Source: a virus. Taken from it: a stretch of DNA of 64,000 bases. The stretch lies in the IMG/VR virus record IMGVR_UViG_3300042888_001055; one strand, given 5' to 3'. The notes under the pieces are model-generated. The model ran no database searches and was not told the DNA's origin. It saw only the letters and a list, made by a program, of their open reading frames with translations. Within the stretch, counting starts at the first letter, position 1, and every line of letters starts with the position of its first letter. Made by a program: the position numbers and the translations under genes. Below, one piece after another: positions 52,356-64,000 of the stretch.

Positions 52356-52649
52356 TTAGTGAATTACTTGCCCTACACTTGTATTAAGCCAAGTCTTAAT
52401 TTCTTTGCGTAATTCTTTTTCTGTATATCCCATTTCACCTAAACGGGATATTAATGAAATAAATAATCCATGACTAGCTATACCATATATATAAGTATCA
52501 TCGTCATTATCAAGTTCAAATTTATCTAATTGATTTAATAAAACATCATTAATGAATTCTGATGCGATAATGGCACTATGTTCAAATTGCCACATTTCCG
52601 GATCTTCATCTTCTACTTCTTTAACTATTAATAGATTCTCTTTGCTCAT
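52356..52649 (-). CDS. hypothetical protein
   Basis: ORF. Confidence 0.65.
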   Translation of the reverse strand: MSKENLLIVKEVEDEDPEMWQFEHSAIIASEFINDVLLNQLDKFELDNDDDTYIYGIASHGLFISLISRLGEMGYTEKELRKEIKTWLNTSVGQVIH

Positions 52650-53121
52650 TATTATTCTCCGAGTTATTATCTGTATTTACTATCGGTGTATATTCATAAT
52701 TAATTGTTTCTATATTCTCTCTAAAAACAATAGCTCCATTACGTAAATGAAATCTCCTAGCCATATTAGTTTTAGGACTTAATGTTACAAATCTAGTAAC
52801 ACTTGGATATTGTTCCTGAATTCCCTTAACTGCCCTATATAATAATTCAGCACCTTTACCGGCTTTATAACTCCATATAGTATAGAATACTGCGGTTGTT
52901 GGTACTTGTGTAGTATTATCTAAATCTTTTACATTTTCTGGAATAAAATCATGGAAACTAACACATACCATAGCATCCGGATTATCTGCTGATTCATCAG
53001 TTAATGCGGCAACTAATCTACCATTACTAACACGAAAATCGGCTGATATTTCAGGTCTTACTGGGTCGTCTTTAATAAATTCTAATAGTTTGTGTGTGAT
53101 ATCTTTGATGAAATGTAGCAT
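52621..53121 (-). CDS. hypothetical protein, possibly GNAT-like
   Basis: YTIWSY..G.G..L, TLSP, FH.RNG. Confidence 0.6.
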   Translation of the reverse strand: MLHFIKDITHKLLEFIKDDPVRPEISADFRVSNGRLVAALTDESADNPDAMVCVSFHDFIPENVKDLDNTTQVPTTAVFYTIWSYKAGKGAELLYRAVKGIQEQYPSVTRFVTLSPKTNMARRFHLRNGAIVFRENIETINYEYTPIVNTDNNSENNNEQRESINS

Positions 53122-53209
53122 TTTAGCCTCAGGGTAGTGTTATTCGTATTTAGCATAAATTTAAAATATGCTATTATTTAGCGACTTTTTTTATCCACTA
53201 AATATTGTC

Positions 53210-54115
53210 ATGGGAAATATTATTGAGTGGAATGTTGGATTAAATGATTTTAAGAAATGTACCCTAGAATTAGGGGGAAATTCTCATAAATTCACCACAG
53301 AATTATTGGATGTTCCATTTGAACCTAATCGTAATATTACTGACATATTCAATGAACATTTAACAAATAGACAAACCAAATATGTAGAGATATTATATAG
53401 TGGTGGATTGGATAGTGAATTGGTATTATTATCCTGTGTTAAAAACAGTATACCAATAATAGCAATAACGTTAGTTATTAAAATAGAAGGGTTAATCATT
53501 AATACCCATGATTTGTATTATGCAGAAAAGTTTTGTAGAGAAAATGATATAACTCATAAATTGATTGAATTGGATGCAGATAAATTTTTTCAGAACGGGA
53601 ATCATCTATCATATTTGTCACCTTATTATATCATAGAACCTCATGTAGCAACACATTTATGGTTACTTGAGCAATGTAGTTATTTCCCAATTATCGGTGG
53701 GGATTGGCCTTGGGTACACGCTCAAAAGGAAGACAAAGTTTTATCACCCTCAAGATTAGAGTTTTCTAGTTATGAACGGTTTATGAAAGATAACGGTATA
53801 CACGGAATTGGTAATATGATTGGATACAGTTTAGAATCTACGTGTAAACTAGTACAGATACATTTGGATAATCATGTAAGTGGTGAATCTGTATCTAACT
53901 TTAAATCACGCATGTATCAAACAATGTATCCTGAATTAGAACCCAGATTAAGAAGTTATGGATGGGAACATCATAAAATAAACTCATTTAATCTAATGAA
54001 TTATAAAATAGAGTTAATTAAACAACTAAGACCCACTACTCCATTTATTAAATGGGGTAATACCATAAAAACACTATTAAATACAGAAGCCAATGAAAAT
54101 GACAAATTCAAATAA
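53210..54115 (+). CDS. PP-loop (adenine nucleotide alpha-hydrolase) family protein
   Basis: LYSGGLDSE; start after CTAAATA. Confidence 0.65.
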   Translation: MGNIIEWNVGLNDFKKCTLELGGNSHKFTTELLDVPFEPNRNITDIFNEHLTNRQTKYVEILYSGGLDSELVLLSCVKNSIPIIAITLVIKIEGLIINTHDLYYAEKFCRENDITHKLIELDADKFFQNGNHLSYLSPYYIIEPHVATHLWLLEQCSYFPIIGGDWPWVHAQKEDKVLSPSRLEFSSYERFMKDNGIHGIGNMIGYSLESTCKLVQIHLDNHVSGESVSNFKSRMYQTMYPELEPRLRSYGWEHHKINSFNLMNYKIELIKQLRPTTPFIKWGNTIKTLLNTEANENDKFK

Positions 54116-54689
54116 ATTTGATACACATGAATCCTTTTACCATGGATTAATTAAAAGTAAAATATGGTTATGTGAAGAATTAGAGACAGCTATATACCGT
54201 GAATGTCTTACAAAACCCTCTTTACATATTCTAGGATGTTGGGATAATCTATTAGCATTTATGCTACTTACTCGAAAACCTACATTCTATAATACTGTAC
54301 ATGGATATGACATTAATCCAGACGCAATATCTAATGCTAATAAAGTATGTGACATGTGGAAATATGAATCACCTAAAGTTTATAATCACATACAAGATGT
54401 GAACAAATATGATTACAGCCTACATGCTAACGGTATTTTCATCAATTGTAGTATAGACCAAATGGATAGTAATAACTGGTATAATTCAATTCCAAATGGA
54501 AGTTTAGTATGTATCCAAACTACTAATATGAAAGATCCAGAATTTCCCTGGTTTATTAAACAAACAACTGATAGTTTAGATGAATTGGTTGATAAATTTA
54601 AACTGAGTAATTTGTTATATTCCGGGGTAAAAAACATACCATATGCTACTAATGGATATAAACGCTATATGATTATAGGAACCAAATGA
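54093..54689 (+). CDS. SAM-dependent methyltransferase-like protein
   Basis: SKIWL, ILGCW, YDIN, INCS pattern. Confidence 0.55.
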   Translation: MKMTNSNKFDTHESFYHGLIKSKIWLCEELETAIYRECLTKPSLHILGCWDNLLAFMLLTRKPTFYNTVHGYDINPDAISNANKVCDMWKYESPKVYNHIQDVNKYDYSLHANGIFINCSIDQMDSNNWYNSIPNGSLVCIQTTNMKDPEFPWFIKQTTDSLDELVDKFKLSNLLYSGVKNIPYATNGYKRYMIIGTK

Positions 54690-54711
54690 TTATAAAAGAA
54701 TAAATACATAT

Positions 54712-55617
54712 ATGGATAATTATAAGTATTTTTCGCAATTATGCGAAAGCATAGTTTCAGAAGCCAGTACAACTATGGCTCAATTTAATGGGCCGGGCGC
54801 ACAGGAAATATTAAAACAACTACATTCTAAAGAAGCTTTAGGACACGATGTTCAACCTGAACCTGCAGTTAGACCTAAATGGACTGATCTAAAAGATAAA
54901 CCGGGAACATGGTTATTAATAGCAGGTAATAAAGGATTTGGTGCAGTAAGATTTATGGTATCCAATGATGCTTATCGTAGCAGGGCATCAAGGTCTGGTT
55001 CATATCAAATATTTGCTAGTAACGGTAAACCTGATCCTGATGAAGGAAATATGGTATATTCTTCCTTTGCAGACAATGTTACCGACGCTAATAGTTTGTT
55101 AAAAAAGATTGTAGGTGATGCTAGAAAATTTTACTTTATGGATAGTGAGTACTCTAAACAATTACGACAGGATCGTGCTAGTAATAAACCAGAGCCTGCA
55201 GGCTTTACTACTACAAATAAATTAACCAAACGGTTCAAACCACTTTTTAAGAAAATACTAATTGCTTCTAAAGCTGATATTAATGGTGTTATTGCTAGTA
55301 TGGCAAAAAATGATGCTCATCACAAAGTAGATAAGAAAATTGATCAGGTAAAATTAATTGATCAGGCAATTGAAGCTTTAGATAATGGTGCCATGACTGA
55401 ATTACTTAATAATGCTGTAAACAATAGTATAGTTTTAACAGCAAGATATTACTATCCAGAATTAACAGGTAATGTAACTAGCGGTTATAGATATCGTGAT
55501 AATAGTTTATCCTCAGAAAAAAACGATGGTACTACAAAAGTGTTGTCAGATATAGCTAACGGAGATAGACAGAAATTAAGTGCTGTTCTCGCTTATCTAA
55601 AAAGGAGTTTAGTATAA
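54712..55617 (+). CDS. late protein, probable virion internal protein
   Basis: ATAAATA upstream, N-terminal LCE/VSE. Confidence 0.7.
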   Translation: MDNYKYFSQLCESIVSEASTTMAQFNGPGAQEILKQLHSKEALGHDVQPEPAVRPKWTDLKDKPGTWLLIAGNKGFGAVRFMVSNDAYRSRASRSGSYQIFASNGKPDPDEGNMVYSSFADNVTDANSLLKKIVGDARKFYFMDSEYSKQLRQDRASNKPEPAGFTTTNKLTKRFKPLFKKILIASKADINGVIASMAKNDAHHKVDKKIDQVKLIDQAIEALDNGAMTELLNNAVNNSIVLTARYYYPELTGNVTSGYRYRDNSLSSEKNDGTTKVLSDIANGDRQKLSAVLAYLKRSLV

Positions 55618-56846
55618 TGAGAGCAATACACTTTTTAACAGAAGCTGATATCAGCACTAATATAATGAAAGACCCAAAGCTAGCAAAAATGTTAGCTATA
55701 GCTGTCAGACATGATAGGACATTTCCAAAAAATGAAATAGCAGATATGGGTCCAAGACCTACTGTTGCTGATTATGTTCAATCATGGAGTAAATTAGTTA
55801 ATCAAACACTAGCGAAAAATGAGTATGGTGATTTAAGTAAAGAAGGTAAGTTTGATAGTTGGTTATTAAAACTATATAATAATCACGCCATAGATTATGA
55901 AGATTTGAATGGTGAGGGCGGAGACGCACTAGGTGCTTGGCAAGCATTAAGCACACGTGGTTTATTAAAGAAACCAGATCAAGACTTTAATAAATTTCCT
56001 AGTATACGGGCGTTACAACAGGCAATGGAAAAAGATGAGTATCGTAATACTCTAAGAAGAATTAAAGATGCCGAAGCATTAGAGAAGCATAAACGTAACA
56101 GAAAAGAAATTGTATTATTAGATAACGATAGATTTCATGTTATCATGCCATTGAACTATGGTGCTTGTTATACATTTAACAATCAAACAGGACACATGAG
56201 TAATTTCTGTACAGGAGGTTCTAGTGGATTGAATTGGTTTAATAATTATGCTCCTGATGGTCCTATCATTAGTATCATTGATAAACAAAACATTGATAAT
56301 AAAAATGGAAAGTGGCAATTACATGCACCAACTAGTCAACTAGTTAATAGTACACAAGATCAAAGATATAATAGAACAGGTGCCGATCGTGAATTTTCTA
56401 AAAGATTTCCCGGCTTATTGAAAGAAATTGTTAAAGGTATGCTTACTAAAGCAGGTGAAGTAAAAGCCGGTAGTAAAGAAATTAGTCCACCTGATGGATA
56501 TGATGTTAGAGAAGCTGCCAAACAAATAATAGCTAAATTCCCTGAAAGTTATAAATCAGTACCGGGTGCTCCGGGAAAAAATCTACCACCCGATGACGAT
56601 GAATTTGTAAATCAACCAGCTCAACCAGAACCAACTCAAGCTACACAAGCAACACAACCTACTGAGCCTGAAGGGCCACGTATAAGTGATTGGAAAATTT
56701 ATAATGCAGGAAGACAAGTTGCAACAGTAGTAAATAAAACACAACAACAAGCTATGCAAGACCTAGAAAAATATGCTATAAAGAATAGAGTACCGCGTGG
56801 TCGTATGTATCTACAAGATTATTCTAACAATCAAATAGTCAGATGA
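55617..56846 (+). CDS. late protein, probable virion internal protein
   Basis: MRAIHFLTEA N-terminus; coupled. Confidence 0.7.
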   Translation: MRAIHFLTEADISTNIMKDPKLAKMLAIAVRHDRTFPKNEIADMGPRPTVADYVQSWSKLVNQTLAKNEYGDLSKEGKFDSWLLKLYNNHAIDYEDLNGEGGDALGAWQALSTRGLLKKPDQDFNKFPSIRALQQAMEKDEYRNTLRRIKDAEALEKHKRNRKEIVLLDNDRFHVIMPLNYGACYTFNNQTGHMSNFCTGGSSGLNWFNNYAPDGPIISIIDKQNIDNKNGKWQLHAPTSQLVNSTQDQRYNRTGADREFSKRFPGLLKEIVKGMLTKAGEVKAGSKEISPPDGYDVREAAKQIIAKFPESYKSVPGAPGKNLPPDDDEFVNQPAQPEPTQATQATQPTEPEGPRISDWKIYNAGRQVATVVNKTQQQAMQDLEKYAIKNRVPRGRMYLQDYSNNQIVR

Positions 56847-56851
56847 TAGCC

Positions 56852-56880
56852 AAAAAAATAGACCCCGAAGGGTCTATTTT
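56852..56880. terminator. bidirectional intrinsic terminator
   Basis: A-tract TAGACCC-CGAA-GGGTCTA T-tract. Confidence 0.8.
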
Positions 56881-57464
56881 CACATTGTAGGTCCATTACC
56901 GTTCTTAAATCCCACACTACCACCTTCACTTTCAATACGTTTGATAACATCTTCAAACAGTATAGGTCTATAGTCTGTATGTTCTACACATACACAATGA
57001 TAACGAGTATCAATTATAGGAATGCCATACTTGCCTATAGGGTCCATCATTACACGATTAGCGTGTAAGTGTCCGTGAATATTAGTACCAAAACGTCCTA
57101 ACGATTCAGTATGAATAGGTATATGACTTAATATCATTCCATTCATAACATGATAAGCACGTAATTCACGGAAATATTCTCTATACTCATCATCACGGAA
57201 GATATCGTGGTTACCACGAATCAATACTTTGTCACCGTTCAAGCGAGACATAATCTTTAATGATTTTCTATTGATAACAACATCACCCAAATGATATACT
57301 TTATCATTTGGTCTAACTGTTTCATTCCATCGTTTAACCATTTCTTCATCCATCTCATCTGGATCAGTCCATGGGCGTAATTTTGTAACACCATCGTTAC
57401 GTGTGAAATGACATACTCCGGCATGCCCGAAGTGTGTATCCGATACTAAAAATACTGAGGGCAT
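56880..57464 (-). CDS. calcineurin-like metallophosphoesterase
   Basis: SDTHFGH, HLGD, GNHD, SH.P, HGHLH. Confidence 0.9.
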   Translation of the reverse strand: MPSVFLVSDTHFGHAGVCHFTRNDGVTKLRPWTDPDEMDEEMVKRWNETVRPNDKVYHLGDVVINRKSLKIMSRLNGDKVLIRGNHDIFRDDEYREYFRELRAYHVMNGMILSHIPIHTESLGRFGTNIHGHLHANRVMMDPIGKYGIPIIDTRYHCVCVEHTDYRPILFEDVIKRIESEGGSVGFKNGNGPTM

Positions 57465-57478
57465 AACATTCCTTTATT

Positions 57479-57553
57479 TGGCATCCCCCCAAGGATTTGA
57501 ACCTTGCCTTGCGGTTTTGGAGACCGATGTGCTGCCGCTGACACTAGGGAGAT
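57479..57553 (-). tRNA. tRNA-Trp(CCA)
   Basis: cloverleaf, loop CTCCAAA, CCA end. Confidence 0.9.
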
Positions 57554-57558
57554 ATTAT

Positions 57559-57780
57559 TTACAAATTCTTTCTAATACGTTTGAGATATTCTCTACCAAT
57601 CAAGCCAGCTTCAATTTCTTCTAATGCAGTTACCATTGGTCCTGCTTTAGTATTAAGCAATGAACGATGTCCACGCTTTAATTCTCTTACCCGCTGTGAG
57701 GCAATAAGAACTAAATCAAATCTACTACCAACCATAAGTGCGGCTTCTTCACTTGTATATCTTGCTCTGCTTTGTGACAT
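57559..57780 (-). CDS. rpoZ: RNA polymerase omega subunit
   Basis: ARYT.E.A...VGSRFDLVLIASQR.REL..AL.EIEAG. Confidence 0.85.
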   Translation of the reverse strand: MSQSRARYTSEEAALMVGSRFDLVLIASQRVRELKRGHRSLLNTKAGPMVTALEEIEAGLIGREYLKRIRKNL

Positions 57781-57789
57781 ATTTTTCCT

Positions 57790-57930
57790 TTATCTTGTTA
57801 CTTTTCTAATCAACTTATACCAATAGTATTTGAACCCTCGGAACACAATGATATCAAAACTAATTATAGGATTAACTTCTTTTACAATGTGTCCGTATGC
57901 TCTATTAATTACATCTTCACTTTTGCTCAT
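57790..57930 (-). CDS. 46-aa hypothetical protein
   Basis: AGGAG RBS; translated by hand. Confidence 0.5.
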   Translation of the reverse strand: MSKSEDVINRAYGHIVKEVNPIISFDIIVFRGFKYYWYKLIRKVTR

Positions 57931-57945
57931 AATTACTCCTTTGTT

Positions 57946-58020
57946 TGGTGGATCGTGTAGGGATTGAACCTACGACCTACGCCTTGTAAGGGCGCCGCAC
58001 TACCGCTGTGCTAACGATCC
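57946..58020 (-). tRNA. tRNA-Val(TAC)
   Basis: cloverleaf, CCA end. Confidence 0.92.
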
Positions 58021-58025
58021 GATAT

Positions 58026-58205
58026 TTAACCACCTTGATTACTGTCTTTAACTTCTGTTTGACTAGCAATTTGTTCAAATGCTTCATCTTCATTCTTTTG
58101 ATCCTCAACTACTCTTGGATCAGGCTTGCGAAAAATATTGTTCCAGTTATTGTCAAATGTATTTAAATCAACACTGTATGGTCTTGGCAAGCTACCTTTA
58201 GTCAT
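58026..58205 (-). CDS. 59-aa hypothetical protein
   Basis: AAGGA RBS, ATGA-coupled. Confidence 0.5.
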   Translation of the reverse strand: MTKGSLPRPYSVDLNTFDNNWNNIFRKPDPRVVEDQKNEDEAFEQIASQTEVKDSNQGG

Positions 58206-58372
58206 TTGCTATTATCCTTACGAGAAGAAGGGCTACGTAAGTTGCTTTTCTCAATCTCTACAAAACTACGAATAAAAGCTCCACGTACATGTGCATCACG
58301 TATAAGTGTTGCCGCACGTTTAACTGCTTTGGGAAGTTTAACTGCCCGTGAATCATAACCTCTACATGTCAT
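58202..58372 (-). CDS. 56-aa basic hypothetical protein
   Basis: GAGGA RBS. Confidence 0.5.
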   Translation of the reverse strand: MTCRGYDSRAVKLPKAVKRAATLIRDAHVRGAFIRSFVEIEKSNLRSPSSRKDNSK

Positions 58373-58397
58373 ACTATTTCCTCTTTTAAAAAATGAT

Positions 58398-58471
58398 TGG
58401 TCTCGGTAGCAGGAATCGAACCTACGCTCGAACGTCCCAAACGTTCAGTGATACCATTTCACCATACCGAG
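58398..58471 (-). tRNA. tRNA-Pro(TGG)
   Basis: cloverleaf, CCA end. Confidence 0.92.
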
Positions 58472-58477
58472 ATAAAC

Positions 58478-58627
58478 TTAACTTGGTATTACATGCGGTA
58501 TGAATGGAACATTTCTAGGACCATATGTTTGTTCAAAAAGCTTTTTAGCTTCTTGTACATTAGGTGCAAAGATTTTTTCTTTCTTTTCACCTTGTGGTGT
58601 TCTAACTGTTGTTTCATACATTGGCAT
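58478..58627 (-). CDS. 49-aa hypothetical protein
   Basis: AGGAG RBS. Confidence 0.55.
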   Translation of the reverse strand: MPMYETTVRTPQGEKKEKIFAPNVQEAKKLFEQTYGPRNVPFIPHVIPS

Positions 58628-58641
58628 ATAATTCTCCTAAT

Positions 58642-58716
58642 TGGTTGCGGGGGACGGAATCGAACCGCCGATCTTCAGGTTATGAGCCTGGTGAGTTACC
58701 GCTTCTCTACCCCGCG
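58642..58716 (-). tRNA. tRNA-Met(CAT), initiator-like
   Basis: CGCGGGG 5' end with C1:A72 mismatch. Confidence 0.88.
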
Positions 58717-58722
58717 CTATCT

Positions 58723-58798
58723 TGGTGGAGGAGACAGGGATCGAACCTGCGACCTATTGCTTGCAAAGCAACCGCTCTCCCAACTGAGCTACACCCCC
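58723..58798 (-). tRNA. tRNA-Ala(TGC)
   Basis: G3:U70, cloverleaf. Confidence 0.93.
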
Positions 58799-58807
58799 AA
58801 ATACTTT

Positions 58808-58892
58808 TGGTGCCCTAGGTCGGACTCGAACCGACACATATTTCTACGCCAGAACCTAAATCTGGTGCGTCTACCAATTTCGCCACCAGGGC
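58808..58892 (-). tRNA. tRNA-Leu(TAG)
   Basis: long variable arm, loop TTTAGGT. Confidence 0.92.
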
Positions 58893-58952
58893 ATTTATTT
58901 CAATACTGATTGTAACAGAAAACTATTTATCTGTCTACTACTTTGGATAACT

Positions 58953-59026
58953 TGGAGCGGGGTAACAGAATCGAACTGTCAGCATTAGCTTGGAAGGCTA
59001 AGGTATTACCACTATACGAACCCCGC
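58953..59026 (-). tRNA. tRNA-Gly(TCC)
   Basis: cloverleaf, U73. Confidence 0.92.
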
Positions 59027-59041
59027 ATAAATACTATTTAT

Positions 59042-59587
59042 ATGACAAACTGCTTTGATATAAACTTATCTCTAAATCCTCTTAAAGAAGATATAGATAT
59101 AAAATCATACGGACCTGATCGTCATACACGAATTCCAATATCAGATATTAATCCTAATTTAATATCATTAATAGATAGATTAGATTTAAAAGTTATATTG
59201 GCTGAACTATTCTACACTAAACCCCATACAATAACCGGGATACACATTGATGTAGTAGGGGGTGATTATACCAAACTAAACTATATATTCGATGGCAAAG
59301 ATAGTTTAATGATGTGGTATAAACCAAAAGACAACATTGTAAAATCTATTAGCAAAACACCTATTAATACTAGGTACATCAGTTATGCTTTACATGAAGT
59401 TGAAATTACTGATAAACAATCAGTTAAGTTTCCTAGCATTATACAAGCTGGTATACCGCATAATGTTATTAACTATTCAGAACCTAGATGGTGTCTTAGT
59501 ATAGTGTTAGTTAAACAAAATGGTGAACGACTTACAATGAAAGAATCAATCTGCATATTCAATAAATATGTAGAAGTTTCATTATGA
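59042..59587 (+). CDS. cupin/2OG-Fe(II)-like protein
   Basis: HID..PHNV..R; start moved out of tRNA-Gly. Confidence 0.6.
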   Translation: MTNCFDINLSLNPLKEDIDIKSYGPDRHTRIPISDINPNLISLIDRLDLKVILAELFYTKPHTITGIHIDVVGGDYTKLNYIFDGKDSLMMWYKPKDNIVKSISKTPINTRYISYALHEVEITDKQSVKFPSIIQAGIPHNVINYSEPRWCLSIVLVKQNGERLTMKESICIFNKYVEVSL

Positions 59588-60129
59588 AGTATTATGTTTC
59601 TGTACCTATAGAAAACTTAAAAACTATACAAGAAAAAGTATTTGAGCTTTTTCCTAAAAGAGAACTTTTTAAAAAAGAATCATTGTTTTATATACCTGAT
59701 AATCTAAATCTTTTCTTAAATATACCTGAGTTAAAAGCAGAGTTAGATAAACTCAACTGGACACCCTATGTCTTTAGTATAGGATTTTATATCATTGGTA
59801 CTACTAATGGAACACATATACATTTAGATAGTAATACATTTACTCATAGTTTTAATATACCAATACTAAACTGTGAAAATACTTTTGTTAATTTTTATAA
59901 GACTGATAAAGAGCCTAAAAAAGAAGTATACAAGTTATATGATACTCTTATAAACTATTACAGGTTTGATCCTGCAGACTGTGTAGTTGTTGACCAACTT
60001 GAAATGTTAACACCGAATGTTATTAACGTACAAGAACCACATAATGTGGTAAATAAGAATACAAAACCACGTATTACATTACTAATACGTTTACGAAATG
60101 ACCTTGATTTATCACACTTATTCCAATGA
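59584..60129 (+). CDS. cupin/2OG-Fe(II)-like protein
   Basis: HLD..PHNV..PR. Confidence 0.6.
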   Translation: MKYYVSVPIENLKTIQEKVFELFPKRELFKKESLFYIPDNLNLFLNIPELKAELDKLNWTPYVFSIGFYIIGTTNGTHIHLDSNTFTHSFNIPILNCENTFVNFYKTDKEPKKEVYKLYDTLINYYRFDPADCVVVDQLEMLTPNVINVQEPHNVVNKNTKPRITLLIRLRNDLDLSHLFQ

Positions 60130-60563
60130 ACTATATAGAATATATAAACTTTCCTAGTATACCCAATGAGTTACTAGATCCAATTGAAAATATTATTAAT
60201 AGCACACGAATAAATAGTATTGTTAAGCAAGATTTTTTTCAAGGAAGACCTGTTAGTAACCAATTACAAGACTGGCTTGAAAAGAACCTTTCATTTAACT
60301 TTGTTGCACAATATCAAATAATCTATTCAGGTATACCTATACATAAAGATATGGGTAATAGGAAATTAGCATATAACTATTTACTGGTATTAGGCGGTAG
60401 TAATGTTAAGACCGTAATATTTGACGACAGTAAAAAGATATTACAATCAGAAATATTACCATTACGTACATGGCACAGTATTAAAACTGACATGTTTCAC
60501 GGTGTATTTGGATTACAAAAAGATAATCCTAGGGTATCACTAAGTGTGACACCTAAACAATAA
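60126..60563 (+). CDS. cupin/2OG-Fe(II)-like protein
   Basis: HKD..FHGV..PR. Confidence 0.6.
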   Translation: MNYIEYINFPSIPNELLDPIENIINSTRINSIVKQDFFQGRPVSNQLQDWLEKNLSFNFVAQYQIIYSGIPIHKDMGNRKLAYNYLLVLGGSNVKTVIFDDSKKILQSEILPLRTWHSIKTDMFHGVFGLQKDNPRVSLSVTPKQ

Positions 60564-60604
60564 AGCCCGGGGTTGCCGGGCCTTAAAGTGAGTGTGTGAA
60601 AGTT

Positions 60605-60844
60605 TTATTTCCTATCAAATGCCCAGAATAAAACTCCTAGAGCCACAAGACCTACTAGACCTTGACTACCCAATGCTGTCACAAACTTTAGAACATTACC
60701 TAAAATGTCTAAACCAATGAATGGCACTGCCGCTCCGAAAATGATTTGTAAGATTACGCCTACTGCTAATAACTTAACTCCCATGTCAACTACATGACCT
60801 AGAAATCCACCAGCAATATCGAATGCGTTGTTCATTTTTTCCAT
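60605..60844 (-). CDS. small membrane protein
   Basis: hydrophobic helices; AAGGA RBS. Confidence 0.7.
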   Translation of the reverse strand: MEKMNNAFDIAGGFLGHVVDMGVKLLAVGVILQIIFGAAVPFIGLDILGNVLKFVTALGSQGLVGLVALGVLFWAFDRK

Positions 60845-60951
60845 GTTTTTGTTTCCTTTCACAAACTAATATTTACCGTTTTGTGAAGGCTTCAAAGCAC
60901 ATTCTCTTTACATTATTAGACTATTCTTATTACACAATAAGTCTATATATT

Positions 60952-61027
60952 TGGAGTAGGTGACAGGAGTCGAACCTGCATAGCACGGATTTGCAATCCG
61001 CTACCTAACCATTCGGTACACACCTAC
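60952..61027 (-). tRNA. tRNA-Cys(GCA)
   Basis: cloverleaf, U73. Confidence 0.9.
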
Positions 61028-61032
61028 ATAAA

Positions 61033-61119
61033 AGCATATTGAAACACACTAACTACCTTGGTATGTACTAAAGTTCAATGAACCGCTACGACCCTATCTT
61101 TAATGTGCTTCAATATGCT
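61033..61119 (-). ncRNA. candidate long-stem small RNA
   Basis: 20-bp terminal stem, both imperfections are G-U on the minus strand. Confidence 0.5.
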
Positions 61120-61120
61120 C

Positions 61121-61310
61121 TGCGTCCCCCGGCGGTAATTATAGTACAAAAAGATATGACGCTATCATACCCCTCACACGTACCTTCCACCCGCTTCCCG
61201 ACAGGGACCGTTCTCGCATTGCTAGCGGCCTTTAGGTTCAAAGACTACCACCCGTAGTTGTCACACTACTTCTCATCGTGCGGGTCACACTATCCGAAGA
61301 CACTCGGAAC
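61121..61310 (-). ncRNA. candidate multi-hairpin structured RNA
   Basis: GC-rich, no credible ORF, several nested stems. Confidence 0.5.
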
Positions 61311-61329
61311 GTTCTTTTATAAATACAGT

Positions 61330-61512
61330 ATGGAACTACAAAACTGTATTGATGTTGTTGAAAAGTTGTTGCGTCAAAACAAACGTAATTACAAAGATAG
61401 CCACGAACAGTTATTATATGAACGGGGTTACCTCACTGGATTGCTTGCTCGTATGATGAGTGATGATCCTAGTATCTTACATCAAATCATAAACAAAACA
61501 AATAATCGCTGA
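61330..61512 (+). CDS. hypothetical late protein
   Basis: TATAAATA 4 nt before ATG 61330. Confidence 0.6.
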   Translation: MELQNCIDVVEKLLRQNKRNYKDSHEQLLYERGYLTGLLARMMSDDPSILHQIINKTNNR

Positions 61513-61513
61513 T

Positions 61514-61605
61514 TGGTGGAGACGGTGAGATTCGAACTCACGGTACGTGTTGCCACATACGACAGGTTAGCAACCTGCTGCCTTCGGCCACTCGGCCACG
61601 TCTCC
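61514..61605 (-). tRNA. tRNA-Ser(GCT)
   Basis: long variable arm. Confidence 0.92.
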
Positions 61606-61612
61606 TAATACT

Positions 61613-61689
61613 TGGTGCCTCCACCTGGACTCGAACCAGGAACCAACGGATTATGAGTCCGCTGCGCTAACCAATTGCGCTATAGAGGC
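61613..61689 (-). tRNA. tRNA(CAT), probably Ile2
   Basis: GACTCATAATC anticodon arm resembles Ile2. Confidence 0.85.
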
Positions 61690-61698
61690 ATCATTCTT

Positions 61699-61783
61699 TG
61701 GTGCGAGTGGGCGGGGTCGAACCGCCATGCCTTGCGACGCCAGATTTTAAGTCTGGAGAGTATACCGATTTCTCCACACTCGC
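61699..61783 (-). tRNA. tRNA-Leu(TAA)
   Basis: long variable arm. Confidence 0.92.
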
Positions 61784-61793
61784 ATTATTGTTA

Positions 61794-61824
61794 ACATTAT
61801 ATATCATACAATGATTGTTGTCAA
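61794..61824 (-). promoter_or_regulatory. sigma70-type promoter inside tRNA array
   Basis: TTGACA-17-TATAAT. Confidence 0.75.
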
Positions 61825-61830
61825 ATAATT

Positions 61831-61907
61831 TGGCGCACCGTAGGGGACTTGAACCCCTGGCCTCATGCGTGACAGGCATGCGATCTAACCAACTGATCTA
61901 ACGGTGC
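61831..61907 (-). tRNA. tRNA-Asp(GTC)
   Basis: cloverleaf, G73. Confidence 0.92.
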
Positions 61908-61980
61908 AAATATGAAACAGGACACCCCTTTGGCCTAGGTCATTTAAGAGTACGCCTGCCCAGCGACTCTCCTATATTCT

Positions 61981-62065
61981 TGGTGGAGATTACCGGGATC
62001 GAACCAGTCGTGCTATAAAGCGGCGGATTTACAGTCCACTGCATCACCATTGATGCTTCATCTCC
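61981..62065 (-). tRNA. tRNA-Tyr(GTA)
   Basis: long variable arm. Confidence 0.9.
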
Positions 62066-62204
62066 AAGGGGAGAGCCACGGTTGCAGGACCTAGTGCTTT
62101 GTTACCAAAGGAAGTATCCAGGCGATGTGGCTCTCAAAACTCAGTATAATATAGATGTATACAACAAGCCTATTATTGTACATATCTATGTTATGTATTA
62201 GTAT

Positions 62205-62400
62205 AAGCTACTTGTTTCCACACAAGCCCTTAATTGAGCGGTTACTCTGTCCATCTCCATTTATTCAAAGTCTGTGTGCAGTTGAGATTCTGCCTATCAG
62301 AGCCTGCGAGGGTATTGTTAATCCTCACGCTAACGGTTTTCTGCCACCGGAACTCTATCGCTATTCAAACGCTACTTTAAGGAAAGTAGTAACCGGATTC
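62205..62400 (-). ncRNA. candidate structured RNA closed by GGTTACT/AGTAACC
   Basis: closing stem with at least 4 internal hairpins. Confidence 0.45.
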
Positions 62401-62402
62401 TT

Positions 62403-62477
62403 TGGAAGAGCATAGGAGAATCGAACTCCTCTTCTTAGGATGAAAACCTAATGTCCTAACCGATAGACGAATGCTCC
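62403..62477 (-). tRNA. tRNA-Glu(TTC)
   Basis: cloverleaf, loop TTTTCAT. Confidence 0.9.
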
Positions 62478-62478
62478 A

Positions 62479-62605
62479 TGTTATTAGTTTTGCTGACGCA
62501 CTATTTGCTATGCTCAACGGAATTATTTGCAAATTTACCGTTTATATACATAGTTAGTTAGAGTTGACGTTTACTCAGGCGCTTACATCAGCAAAACTAA
62601 TAACA
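62479..62605 (-). ncRNA. candidate long-stem small RNA
   Basis: perfect 18-bp terminal inverted repeat with branched interior. Confidence 0.5.
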
Positions 62606-62607
62606 CA

Positions 62608-62675
62608 CTATATGAAAACACACTACCTCGCTATTTGCGGGCGAGACACCGACTGTATAGTGTGTTTACATATAG
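62608..62675 (-). ncRNA. candidate long-stem small RNA
   Basis: 17/18-bp terminal stem sharing CACA(C/T)TA/TAGTGTGTTT with 61033-61119. Confidence 0.45.
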
Positions 62676-62713
62676 TCCCTGTAACTTAAACAGGGCTATA
62701 TGATAACTCAGAA

Positions 62714-62874
62714 TTTTAAAGAACTTTGTTGATTAGTACGATGACTTTCTCAACTCATGCTATGATTGTATCATAACTACCATTTATTGTCAAATTCTTC
62801 TGTTTCACTGTTTCCCGAGAACTTGTTCAATCAATCTATGAATAGAGTATATCAGATTGAGGATTTATTGTCAA
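62714..62874 (-). promoter_or_regulatory. tandem sigma70 promoters plus boxA-like motif heading the stable-RNA operon
   Basis: -35 at 62874 and 62793 with 17-nt spacers to TATACT/TACAAT; GTTCTTTAAAA at 62714-62724. Confidence 0.65.
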
Positions 62875-62929
62875 ATTTTATCATTTTAGTACTTTATACT
62901 ACATAAAATACTTGATGATAAATATTGTT

Positions 62930-63526
62930 ATGACAACCTCCCTATATGATGATTTAGAATTACCAAAAACTTGCACCTCTGAAGAAATCAAACAAAAATA
63001 CAGAATCTTAGCACAACTACATCATCCTGACAAGGGAGGGGATGTGGAAAAGTTCAAACGGATGAAATTGGCATACGAAGTGTTAAGTGACCCTATCAAA
63101 CGTGAACACTATGATTCGACCGGTGATCATTATAATGATATTAACCTTGACAGTGAGGTTATGGGCAGATTAGCTGTTATGGTTTCACAGTTTGTTCAAC
63201 ATATTAATCCAGAGTTTGATGATTTAATACTAAAAATGAAAATTGAGATTCGTGCATTACAACAACTGACAACAAATGCTATTGTAGAATGTAATGATTT
63301 AATTGCCAAATTTAACATTATTTCTAAAAAGATTAGATTAAAAAAAGAAGGCGAGAACTTGTTAAAGTTGGTAGTTGACAAAAAAGTATTAGGGCTTCAT
63401 AATGAAGTAATTAACCACAAAAGAGGTTTAATTGTTTTTGCTAGGATGTTAGAAGTATTAGACGATTATCACTACAGTAGTGATGAATGGCGATTACTAC
63501 TAGAAAACGTTGATGGTCCGGCGTAG
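62930..63526 (+). CDS. J-domain (DnaJ-like) protein
   Basis: LY..L....EIKQKYR.LA...HPDKGG..AYEVLSD..R..YD. Confidence 0.88.
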   Translation: MTTSLYDDLELPKTCTSEEIKQKYRILAQLHHPDKGGDVEKFKRMKLAYEVLSDPIKREHYDSTGDHYNDINLDSEVMGRLAVMVSQFVQHINPEFDDLILKMKIEIRALQQLTTNAIVECNDLIAKFNIISKKIRLKKEGENLLKLVVDKKVLGLHNEVINHKRGLIVFARMLEVLDDYHYSSDEWRLLLENVDGPA

Positions 63527-63588
63527 AGGAATCGAACCTCTATTGACGGCTTAGAAGGCCGCTGTATGATCCATTATACTAACGCCAG
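63514..63588 (-). tRNA. tRNA-Arg(TCT)
   Basis: cloverleaf, CCA end. Confidence 0.9.
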
Positions 63589-63603
63589 AAGTTTTAAGTT
63601 GTT

Positions 63604-63684
63604 TGGCTCCACGGCTAGGACTCGAACCTAGCTAGCTTTCGCACAGATTAACAGTCTGCTGCCACACCCGGCGGCTCCCGTGGA
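63604..63684 (-). tRNA. tRNA-Asn(GTT), atypical
   Basis: 81 nt, 11-nt variable region, G8. Confidence 0.8.
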
Positions 63685-63691
63685 ATAATTT

Positions 63692-63767
<76 letters not shown>

Positions 63768-63792
63768 GACTTTTATTTAATAGTATTATACA

Positions 63793-64000
63793 CTAACTTA
63801 ATAATATTCTACTATGTTTTGGAACTCCTGCTAACAAATATTCCATTTGATCAGCAAGAATTGTTCTATGTTGTAATATCATATTTTCGTAGTGGTTTGG
63901 GATGTATGGTAAGTATAGTAATTCCATACGCACTTCTTTTAAACTCTTATGTCCTTTTTTGCTGTTACAATCTTTACATGCTGTAACAACATTCATCCAA
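63793..64000 (-). CDS. HNH endonuclease, C-terminal part (runs off window)
   Basis: W.NVVTACKDCNSKKG. Confidence 0.8.
   Translation of the reverse strand, partial: WMNVVTACKDCNSKKGHKSLKEVRMELLYLPYIPNHYENMILQHRTILADQMEYLLAGVPKHSRILLS

Follow-up and report, generated by a model that had tools for sequence, protein, structure and literature searches.

Phage tRNA clusters have been recognised since the work on T4 as a source of stable RNAs other than tRNAs, for which, to our knowledge, no function has yet been established. GOLLD and ROOL RNAs also lie near tRNAs in phages, and RNase III stalks form in rRNA operons and T7 early transcripts, where the mature RNA is enclosed by a stem of about 20 bp made by the sequences on either side of it. 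The two T4 RNAs, rnaC and rnaD, come from the tRNA region of the genome, and their roles are unknown (PMC3014915; PMC9697503). GOLLD and ROOL are reported to form RNA-only multimers (10.1101/2024.12.08.627333), while theta ribozymes, the minimal HDV-like ribozymes of gut phages, cleave no more than 5 nt from the 3' ends of phage tRNAs and have been proposed to release the upstream tRNA (PMC10879173). These are the nearest topics in the literature to the RNA families considered here (E1-E7), for which literature searches found no description.

The window analysed is a stretch of 64,000 nt from an uncultured giant lake phage (IMG/VR record IMGVR_UViG_3300042888_001055), in which the gaps between tRNAs carry at least six conserved, folded ncRNA genes that share the strand of the tRNAs, are closely packed with them and recur among giant lake phages. 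The features of this stretch are given below, with folding energies expressed as z-scores measured against shuffles.

60561-60585, minus strand: terminator-like GC hairpin (10 pairs, 6 of them G-C, with a T-rich tail)
60952-61027, minus strand: tRNA-Cys(GCA), 5 nt past E1 (ARAGORN and Rfam)
61033-61119, minus strand: E1, RNA closed by a 20 bp clamp stem around an interior of 47 nt (z = -7.4; alignment A7)
61113-61310, minus strand: E2, RNA of about 195-200 nt (covariation in alignment A3, score of model R1, spread of the core, mapped tail)
61796-61824, minus strand: internal promoter-like site TTGACA-17-TATAAT between tRNA-Asp and tRNA-Leu (12/12 matches)
61916-61976, minus strand: E3, 61-nt conserved spacer RNA between tRNA-Tyr and tRNA-Asp (17 loci)
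61981-62065, minus strand: tRNA-Tyr(GUA), class II (Rfam tRNA, cloverleaf, homologues; missed by ARAGORN in the window)
62071-62135, minus strand: E4, RNA of 61-67 nt (z = -4.1; covariation)
62146-62194, no strand assigned: near-perfect AT-rich palindrome between E5 and E4 (z = -2.9)
62197-62400, minus strand: E5, pseudoknotted RNA of about 200 nt, 2 nt past the CCA of tRNA-Glu (covariation in alignment A4, model R2)
62403-62477, minus strand: tRNA-Glu(UUC), CCA encoded (ARAGORN and Rfam)
62479-62605, minus strand: E6, 127-nt RNA (z = -6.2; covariation)
62608-62675, minus strand: E7, stem-closed small RNA with a clamp and a 32-nt interior (z = -5.4; inverted repeat I2)
62765-62793, minus strand: second promoter-like site TTGACA-17-TACAAT with a TG (11/12 matches), at -188 from E6
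62846-62874, minus strand: promoter-like site TTGACA-17-TATACT with a TG, upstream of the cluster (11/12 matches)

The original prediction, made from this sequence alone, held that the spaces between these tRNAs are not AT-rich linkers but folded elements beginning close to tRNA ends or to each other, and both statements are borne out. The GC content of the spacers is 41-53% against 24-33% in neighbouring coding DNA, so that they stand out as GC-rich islands on the minus strand, the strand of all 16 tRNAs found by ARAGORN, and the ncRNA elements lie 0-11 nt from tRNA ends in both the window and its relatives. The coordinates first assigned to the elements are accurate to within a few bases, apart from the tail of E2, which overlaps the 5' arm of E1, and the conserved 3' part of E5, which reaches approximately 62197. 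The interval 61977-62070, previously left blank, contains the class II tRNA-Tyr, which folds as a cloverleaf with a GUA anticodon and a long variable arm, scores 33.1 bits against the RF00005 threshold of 29 in a covariance-model search, and has homologues that ARAGORN identifies as tRNA-Tyr. The elements had also been called ORF-free, which holds in effect: ORFs on the opposite (plus) strand overlap E2 and E5, but the indels that distinguish homologues have lengths not divisible by three.

As with rnaC and rnaD, the elements are non-tRNA RNAs within a phage tRNA cluster, encoded on the tRNA strand and only a few nucleotides from a tRNA; the T4 order is tRNA-Arg, rnaD, rnaC, spaced by 1 and 6 nt. 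Unlike in T4, where two RNAs stand at the end of the cluster, at least six families are interleaved among the tRNAs here, and two of these are larger than rnaC and rnaD, with several pseudoknots. Of the elements, E2 and E5 were compared with T4, and their models R1 (E2) and R2 (E5) found no match in the T4 tRNA region at E <= 1. The elements also resemble GOLLD and ROOL in being structured phage RNAs of unassigned function, and E6, with its palindromic loop, may self-associate, but they measure 60-200 nt rather than 500-800 nt and match no Rfam family. At gathering thresholds, Rfam 15 returned tRNAs only; at E <= 10 over positions 60800-62950, it added only tRNA-related hits and far-below-threshold matches to miRNAs, snoRNAs and sRNAs, with no match near threshold for GOLLD, ROOL, YrlA, tmRNA, RNase P, 6S, SRP or known ribozymes and riboswitches. 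Since no Rfam family matches the elements, the Rfam search leaves the original prediction standing. When the region was used as a blastn query, 50,697 records of cultured phages yielded tRNA matches only and no relative.

Natural variation in related contigs provides evidence that the elements are structured RNAs, and pairing was judged by comparing the percentage of paired cells in each alignment with slid controls. For the two largest RNAs, paired cells reach 96-98% against 35-46% in the controls. E2 (A3, 68 distinct homologues) has 95.8% of cells paired against 35-46%, and 34 of its 54 pairs are changed on both sides, a value equalled in none of 500 shuffles; its fold comprises helices P1-P8, a kissing loop between P1 and P3 and a pseudoknot in which the P2 loop pairs with J3/4, together with two invariant cores, UCGGGAAGCGGGUGGARGG and CUAUAAUUACCGCCG. 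E5 (A4, 46 distinct homologues) has 98.4% of cells paired against 38-46%, with 13 of 40 pairs changed on both sides, an H-type pseudoknot joining 114-119 with 142-147, and a tertiary pair 7-20. At the window copies, R1 scores 234.9 bits and R2 248.8 bits. Both RNAs retain invariant unpaired stretches of 15-30 nt as well as pseudoknots across hundreds of contigs: the E2 core occurs in at least 119 viral contigs, and a 33-mer core of E5 in 63 viral and 77 metagenome contigs, all of the latter longer than 1 kb and none transcript-sized. The E2 19-mer also gave 34 matches in 185,579 prokaryote species genomes, mostly from high-GC taxa; these are chance matches and include no genuine E2, as the best R1 score among them is 13.9 bits compared with 150-235 for true members. 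A comparison of the E2 core by eye with motifs of RNase P, SRP, T-box, ZTP and ykkC RNAs revealed no convincing match.

The smaller elements differ in how much their variants reveal. In E4 (56 loci; 27 distinct homologues), pairing reaches 98.4% of cells and both sides have changed in 11 of 19 pairs; this RNA consists of a closing stem of 7-9 bp, an invariant core and an apical hairpin whose loop alternates between GNRA and UUCG. The alignment of E6 (41 loci; 24 distinct homologues) shows pairing in 98.9% of cells and two-sided changes in 16 of 37 pairs, and the RNA has a closing stem of 18-22 bp, three inner hairpins and an apical loop containing a palindrome of 6-10 nt in all 13 distinct loop variants. 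Because this loop is always palindromic, E6 may pair with itself in a loop-loop homodimer. Covariation among homologues thus supports E2, E5, E4 and E6, and low folding energies mark E1, E6, E7 and E4, whereas E2, E5 and E3 are energetically unexceptional (z = -1.0, -0.65 and -1.2, respectively). E3 is 95-98% identical over its 17 loci, with a stem of about 6 bp, and its fold stays putative because just six variants exist. The broader proposal of an enlarged T4-like set of stable RNAs is supported in part, namely for conserved structured RNAs closely packed on the tRNA strand downstream of sigma-70-type consensus sites; covariation is slight in E1 and absent in E3. The suggestion that such RNAs are decoys for anticodon nucleases finds no pointer in the element sequences.

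Several observations bear on strand and on how the RNAs might be made. The strand of E2 agrees with that of the neighbouring tRNA in all 134 downstream and all 122 upstream cases, and the end of its tail lies 0-5 nt upstream of the next tRNA. G·U pairs are frequent in E2, E5 and E1 and would become A·C mismatches on the opposite strand, which is why E2 is read in the minus-strand sense. Promoter-like sites as a whole are not enriched (26 against 24.8 in shuffles), and only the three best sites and their conservation are given weight as promoters. About half of the upstream variants in relatives carry sites resembling that at 62846-62874, placed 118-226 nt upstream of E6. Of the 14 distinct variants of the spacer between tRNA-Asp and tRNA-Leu, 13 retain both TTGAC[A/T] and an element resembling a -10 box. 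Taken together, the sigma-70 consensus sites on the tRNA strand, the gaps of 0-11 nt and the G·U wobbles point to tRNAs and ncRNAs that are co-transcribed and released by tRNA processing. Pfam scans of 52621-63526 detected no RNA-processing gene and no Ro60-like gene.

The 1.7-kb stretch is probably a mixed minus-strand operon of tRNA and ncRNA genes whose RNAs act in trans. The slots between its tRNAs hold the pseudoknotted RNAs E2 and E5 of about 200 nt, the terminal-helix-closed RNAs E4 and E6, the clamp cassettes E1 and E7 and the 61-nt spacer E3. Host-type sigma-70 promoters near 62850, 62770 and 61810 would generate one or two long precursors ending at the hairpin at 60561-60585. With only 0-11 nt between the RNAs and tRNA ends, they would be set free when RNase P cuts where the next tRNA begins and when the 3' end of the previous tRNA is trimmed to its encoded CCA; RNase III may also cleave the 18-22 bp stems. 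The pieces would be shielded from exonucleases by their terminal helices and knotted cores, giving stable small RNAs similar to rnaC and rnaD. In the infected cell these RNAs would most likely work in trans, bound to a protein or to another RNA; the best hints of such action are the unpaired cores of E2 and E5, which are invariant, and the loop of E6, which is always palindromic. A more ambitious extension, in which tRNA arrays serve as expression platforms for a new RNA toolkit, can be offered only tentatively: E5 and perhaps E2 might represent a new class of RNA that is catalytic or binds a ligand or protein (for example, a ribozyme freeing the upstream tRNA at its CCA), E6 a loop-loop homodimer, and the clamp a sequence-specific handle for one phage or host protein, with interchangeable small RNA cargoes.

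An unlikely alternative to action in trans is that the elements aid processing or folding of the tRNA precursor in cis, as RNase III stalks, insulators or order-setting spacers, and are degraded after use. The tight packing of the elements against tRNAs would suit such a role, and the stems of E1 (20 bp), E6 (18-22 bp) and E7 (18-19 bp) have the length that RNase III needs, while E4 (7-9 bp) and E3 (about 6 bp) fall well below the roughly 20 bp of a stalk. A processing signal would also fit the clamp of about 18-20 bp common to E1 and E7, a stem of the AAACACAC/GUGUGUUU family (18-19 bp in E7) that encloses 108 different, unrelated interiors in related phages, as counted by strict arm searches (a looser fuzzy search gave mostly noise). 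Known RNase III stalks differ from E1 and E7, in which the stem sequence is conserved and the enclosed RNA interchangeable. Against a cis role, many tRNA pairs of the arrays manage with spacers of just 6-10 nt and no elements, the unpaired invariant stretches and pseudoknots of E2 and E5 exceed what a spacer requires, and the interiors of E1, E4 and E6 are conserved. That E5, and perhaps other elements at tRNA 3' ends, is a new self-cleaving ribozyme releasing the upstream tRNA is quite improbable, even though in most of its distinct contexts its 5' end lies 0-2 nt past the CCA of a tRNA-Glu or a tRNA-Tyr, within the distance of 5 nt or less at which theta ribozymes adjoin phage tRNA 3' ends (PMC10879173), and is tied into the knotted invariant core by pair 7-20 and the 114-119/142-147 pseudoknot. 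No Rfam ribozyme family matches at E <= 10, and a descriptor of our own, used without a positive control, for the HDV-like nested double pseudoknot (P1, P1.1, P2, P3, P4; catalytic C in J4/2) gave 0 matches on the minus strand of 60900-62750. In addition, E5 is 3-4 times larger than theta ribozymes and occurs in lake rather than gut phages, and the encoded CCA means that host exonucleases could finish the tRNA ends alone.

For the E1/E7-type cassettes, an origin as mobile palindromic DNA (MITE- or REP-like) lodged between tRNA genes rather than as functional RNAs is very improbable. The E1 site is filled in some relatives and empty in others, and the same arms can hold differing interiors at one site, which together with the diversity of interiors overall is what mobility would produce. 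Nevertheless, in the tRNA sense the clamp family has 229 G·U pairs against 72 A·C, and the E1 5' arm varies only in ways that preserve G·U or Watson-Crick pairing. Only 2 of the 29 E1 pairs are changed on both sides in A7, and all one-sided changes keep pairing through G·U. The E1 interior is conserved over 42 loci, the motif occurs within the 64-kb window only as E1 and E7 (the latter having few homologues), and no transposase is linked to it. E1 comes 1 nt after E2 in each of 21-23 distinct contexts and shares its outer 5' arm with the E2 tail; because this conserved tail, GCAGAGCAUAU, continues into the E1 5' arm, the two elements overlap by about 7 nt. Least credible of all is that E2 serves on the plus strand as leader or regulator for the small ORF at 61330-61512, whose start is 20 nt beyond E2 and which E2 abuts in the first 12 related loci examined: the G·U pairs of E2 fit the minus strand only, and when all loci are considered, E2 is flanked on both sides, at short distance, by same-strand tRNAs without that ORF.

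Compared with T4, the set of RNAs here is far larger: a single 1.7-kb stretch holds at least six distinct conserved RNA families, whose core sequences recur in hundreds of uncultured giant-phage contigs. Natural variants already establish the folds, down to the pseudoknots, the kissing loop and the loop that is complementary to itself, so these RNAs are ready for biochemistry and for entry into Rfam. If any of them proved to be catalytic or to block host defence, that would account for the large tRNA islands retained by giant phages.

Two further features of the locus may be mentioned. Plus-strand ORFs at 61330-61512 and 62930-63526 lie within the minus-strand unit, so transcription may be more complex than a single direction would imply. 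Homologues of the palindrome at 62146-62194 were counted 20 times among the loci.

The spacers between the tRNA genes at about 61033-62700, predicted to hold at least seven folded elements (E1-E7), have a GC content of 41-53%, against 24-33% in adjacent coding DNA. Minus-strand folding energy lies below all 200 shuffles for E1 (z = -7.4), E6 (-6.2), E7 (-5.4) and E4 (-4.1), and is not exceptional for E2, E5 and E3. Together with homologues of all seven elements among related loci, these values bear out the original prediction. The Rfam search that it envisaged returned tRNAs only at gathering thresholds (Rfam 15), and the matches added up to an E-value of 10 were noise far below threshold. Covariation holds for E2, E5, E6 and E4 and is weak for E1, where both-sided changes occur at 2 of 29 pairs and one-sided changes are all wobble-compatible; just six E3 variants occur among 17 loci, so its fold is only predicted. 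At the genomic level, sequence comparison thus far supports the proposal of a larger set of tRNA-cluster RNAs, E1-E7. Neither Rfam nor the literature searched describes these RNA families, which belong to a kind of phage feature already known.

Elements and putative signals of the region
60585-60561, minus strand: candidate terminator, GC hairpin with T-rich tail
61033-61119, minus strand: E1, clamp arms
~61113-61310, minus strand: E2, covariation fold with invariant 19-nt core
61824-61796, minus strand: promoter-like TTGACA-17-TATAAT, 12/12
61916-61976, minus strand: E3, 95-98% conserved in 17 loci
62071-62135, minus strand: E4, covarying closing stem, invariant core, apical hairpin
~62197-62400, minus strand: E5, covariation fold with 33-nt core
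62479-62605, minus strand: E6, closing stem of 20-22 bp, three inner hairpins
62608-62675, minus strand: E7, clamp arms
62793-62765, minus strand: promoter-like site with TG, upstream of E7, 11/12
62874-62846, minus strand: promoter-like site with TG, upstream of E7, 11/12

The window (~32% GC) is a phage-like contig in which all 16 tRNAs found by ARAGORN lie on the minus strand, and CCA is encoded in the tRNA genes. A 17th tRNA at 61984-62065 scores 33.1 bits in Rfam (threshold 29) and adopts a class II cloverleaf fold with a GUA anticodon; its homologues are tRNA-Tyr according to ARAGORN. A search of a phage record collection with the region gave tRNA matches only and no relative. Searching with a 60-aa ORF (61330-61512, plus strand) yielded 21 related IMG/VR loci, several on contigs of 220-364 kb, which places the phage in a group of giant lake phages that have not been cultured. 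This ORF, without a Pfam family match, is antisense to the tRNAs and tightly squeezed between them, a placement shared by all 21 loci (42-97% identity) with differing adjoining tRNAs.

The fold of E2, derived from mutual information in 89 distinct copies, comprises hairpins P1-P5 and the variable hairpin P7, the helices P6 (long-range, 103-107 with 183-187) and P8 (invariant), kissing of the P1 loop with the P3 loop, and a pseudoknot in which the P2 loop (ACCC) pairs with GGGU 3' of P3. At least 119 viral contigs carry its invariant core, UCGGGAAGCGGGUGGARGG. Across 68 distinct sequences, 95.8% of cells are paired, against 35-46% when pairing partners are shifted (slid control), and both-sided changes occur at 34 of 54 pairs; none of 500 shuffles matches the observed values. 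Abundant G·U pairs assign E2 to the minus strand, and it shares the strand of the adjoining tRNA, of many isotypes, in every one of 134 downstream and 122 upstream cases. The tail of E2, conserved as GCAGAGCA(A/U)(U)AU, stops 0-5 nt short of the following tRNA wherever E1 is absent. The window contains a single match to the E2 covariance model, at 234.9 bits. The core has 34 hits across 185,579 prokaryote species genomes, all chance matches with model scores of at most 13.9 bits. Positions 93, a P5 loop base, and 100, 7 nt downstream (window ~61218 and ~61211), covary outside the nested fold (U-A in 81 sequences, C-G in 8), which could reflect a tertiary pair or shared ancestry. Some variants (L008 3705-3987, L010 3756-3987 and others) carry an additional ~50-nt hairpin 3' of P3 or a far longer P7 while retaining all core motifs; the insertion points look like expansion sites of other ornate RNAs.

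E1 and E7 share the arms of a closing stem of ~18-20 bp (the clamp) around unrelated interiors. In related loci, this clamp type (…AAACACA… with …UGUGUUU…) surrounds 108 distinct interiors, 7-181 nt long. Its occurrences number 173 on the tRNA strand and 13 on the opposite one, and a strand-neutral count of its pairs gives, in the tRNA sense, 229 G·U against 72 A·C. E1 follows E2 after 1 nt in 21-23 distinct contexts. Because its outer 5' arm (AGCAUAU) is the tail of E2 and other interiors fill the same site in other phages, E2 and E1 may be a single RNA with a swappable 3' module. Some 63-nt interiors (L148, L242, L111) contain a T-arm-like GGUUCGAAUCC hairpin, and these cassettes may accordingly be tRNA-like.

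The 33-nt core of E5 is found in 63 viral contigs and in 77 from metagenomes. Among 46 distinct sequences, 98.4% of cells are paired (38-46% when slid), with both-sided changes at 13 of 40 pairs. An H-type pseudoknot joins loop 114-119 to 142-147; the 5' end is anchored in the first hairpin's loop by the tertiary pair 7-20, which covaries. In most distinct contexts this end lies 0-2 nt past the CCA of tRNA-Glu or tRNA-Tyr, and the next tRNA or E4 begins ~10 nt past the assigned 3' border. The E5 model, too, has a single match in the window. A near-perfect AT-rich palindrome of 49 nt (62146-62194), lacking the T-run typical of a terminator, separates E5 from E4; across the loci, 20 homologous copies were counted.

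In E6, 98.9% of cells are paired and 16 of 37 pairs show both-sided changes. One apical loop carries a perfect palindrome, 6-10 nt long, in each of the 13 distinct variants, with varying cores (CCAGCUGG, GCUGCAGC, GUGGCCAC, AUUUGCAAAU, AUUUCGAAAU, CCGGCCGG, GUGAUCAC); it reaches at least 8 nt in 11 of 13, against 5.5% of shuffles. Since the central four bases are self-complementary in every variant, which an intramolecular hairpin does not need, a loop-loop homodimer would be the simplest reading. E4 has 98.4% paired cells and both-sided changes at 11 of 19 pairs, and its apical loop is GNRA in some variants and UUCG in others.

Known phage RNAs offer points of comparison. In T4, tRNA-Arg, rnaD (119 nt) and rnaC (139 nt) are separated by gaps of 1 and 6 nt, and the roles of rnaC and rnaD are unknown (PMC3014915; PMC9697503); they share the tRNA-cluster context of our elements but show no homology to E2 or E5, neither of whose models matches the T4 tRNA region. 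Theta ribozymes are HDV-like and located at phage tRNA 3' ends (PMC10879173), the position that E5 also takes, and no HDV-like fold was found by Rfam 15 to an E-value of 10 or by our own unvalidated HDV descriptor. GOLLD and ROOL are ruled out by Rfam and size.

When promoter-like sites in 57300-64000 were scored as matches out of 12, the top ones all fell on the minus strand. The 61824-61796 site is retained in all but one of the 14 distinct variants of the spacer from tRNA-Asp to tRNA-Leu, and about half of the related variants have similar sites 118-226 nt upstream of E6. The hairpin at 60585-60561 could end the minus-strand unit. Gaps of 0-11 nt and the encoded CCA suggest that the RNAs would be freed by RNase P cutting at the 5' end of every tRNA and by trimming as far as the CCA; the 18-22 bp stems are long enough for RNase III.

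Protein genes also lie within the tRNA region. A 73-aa ORF in the tRNA-Trp/tRNA-Val gap (57559-57780, minus, the tRNA strand) matches PF01192, the Rpb6/omega family of RNA polymerase (E = 1.2e-11), and is also present in relatives. A DnaJ-domain protein (62930-63526, plus; PF00226, E = 2e-18) is encoded within the minus-strand tRNA region, its final 13 bases overlapping tRNA-Arg of the other strand. Some relatives carry an HNH endonuclease gene (L297 5464-6024; L301 2922-3482) ~2.3 kb from the 60-aa ORF and on the opposite strand to it, which recalls segB of the T4 tRNA cluster.
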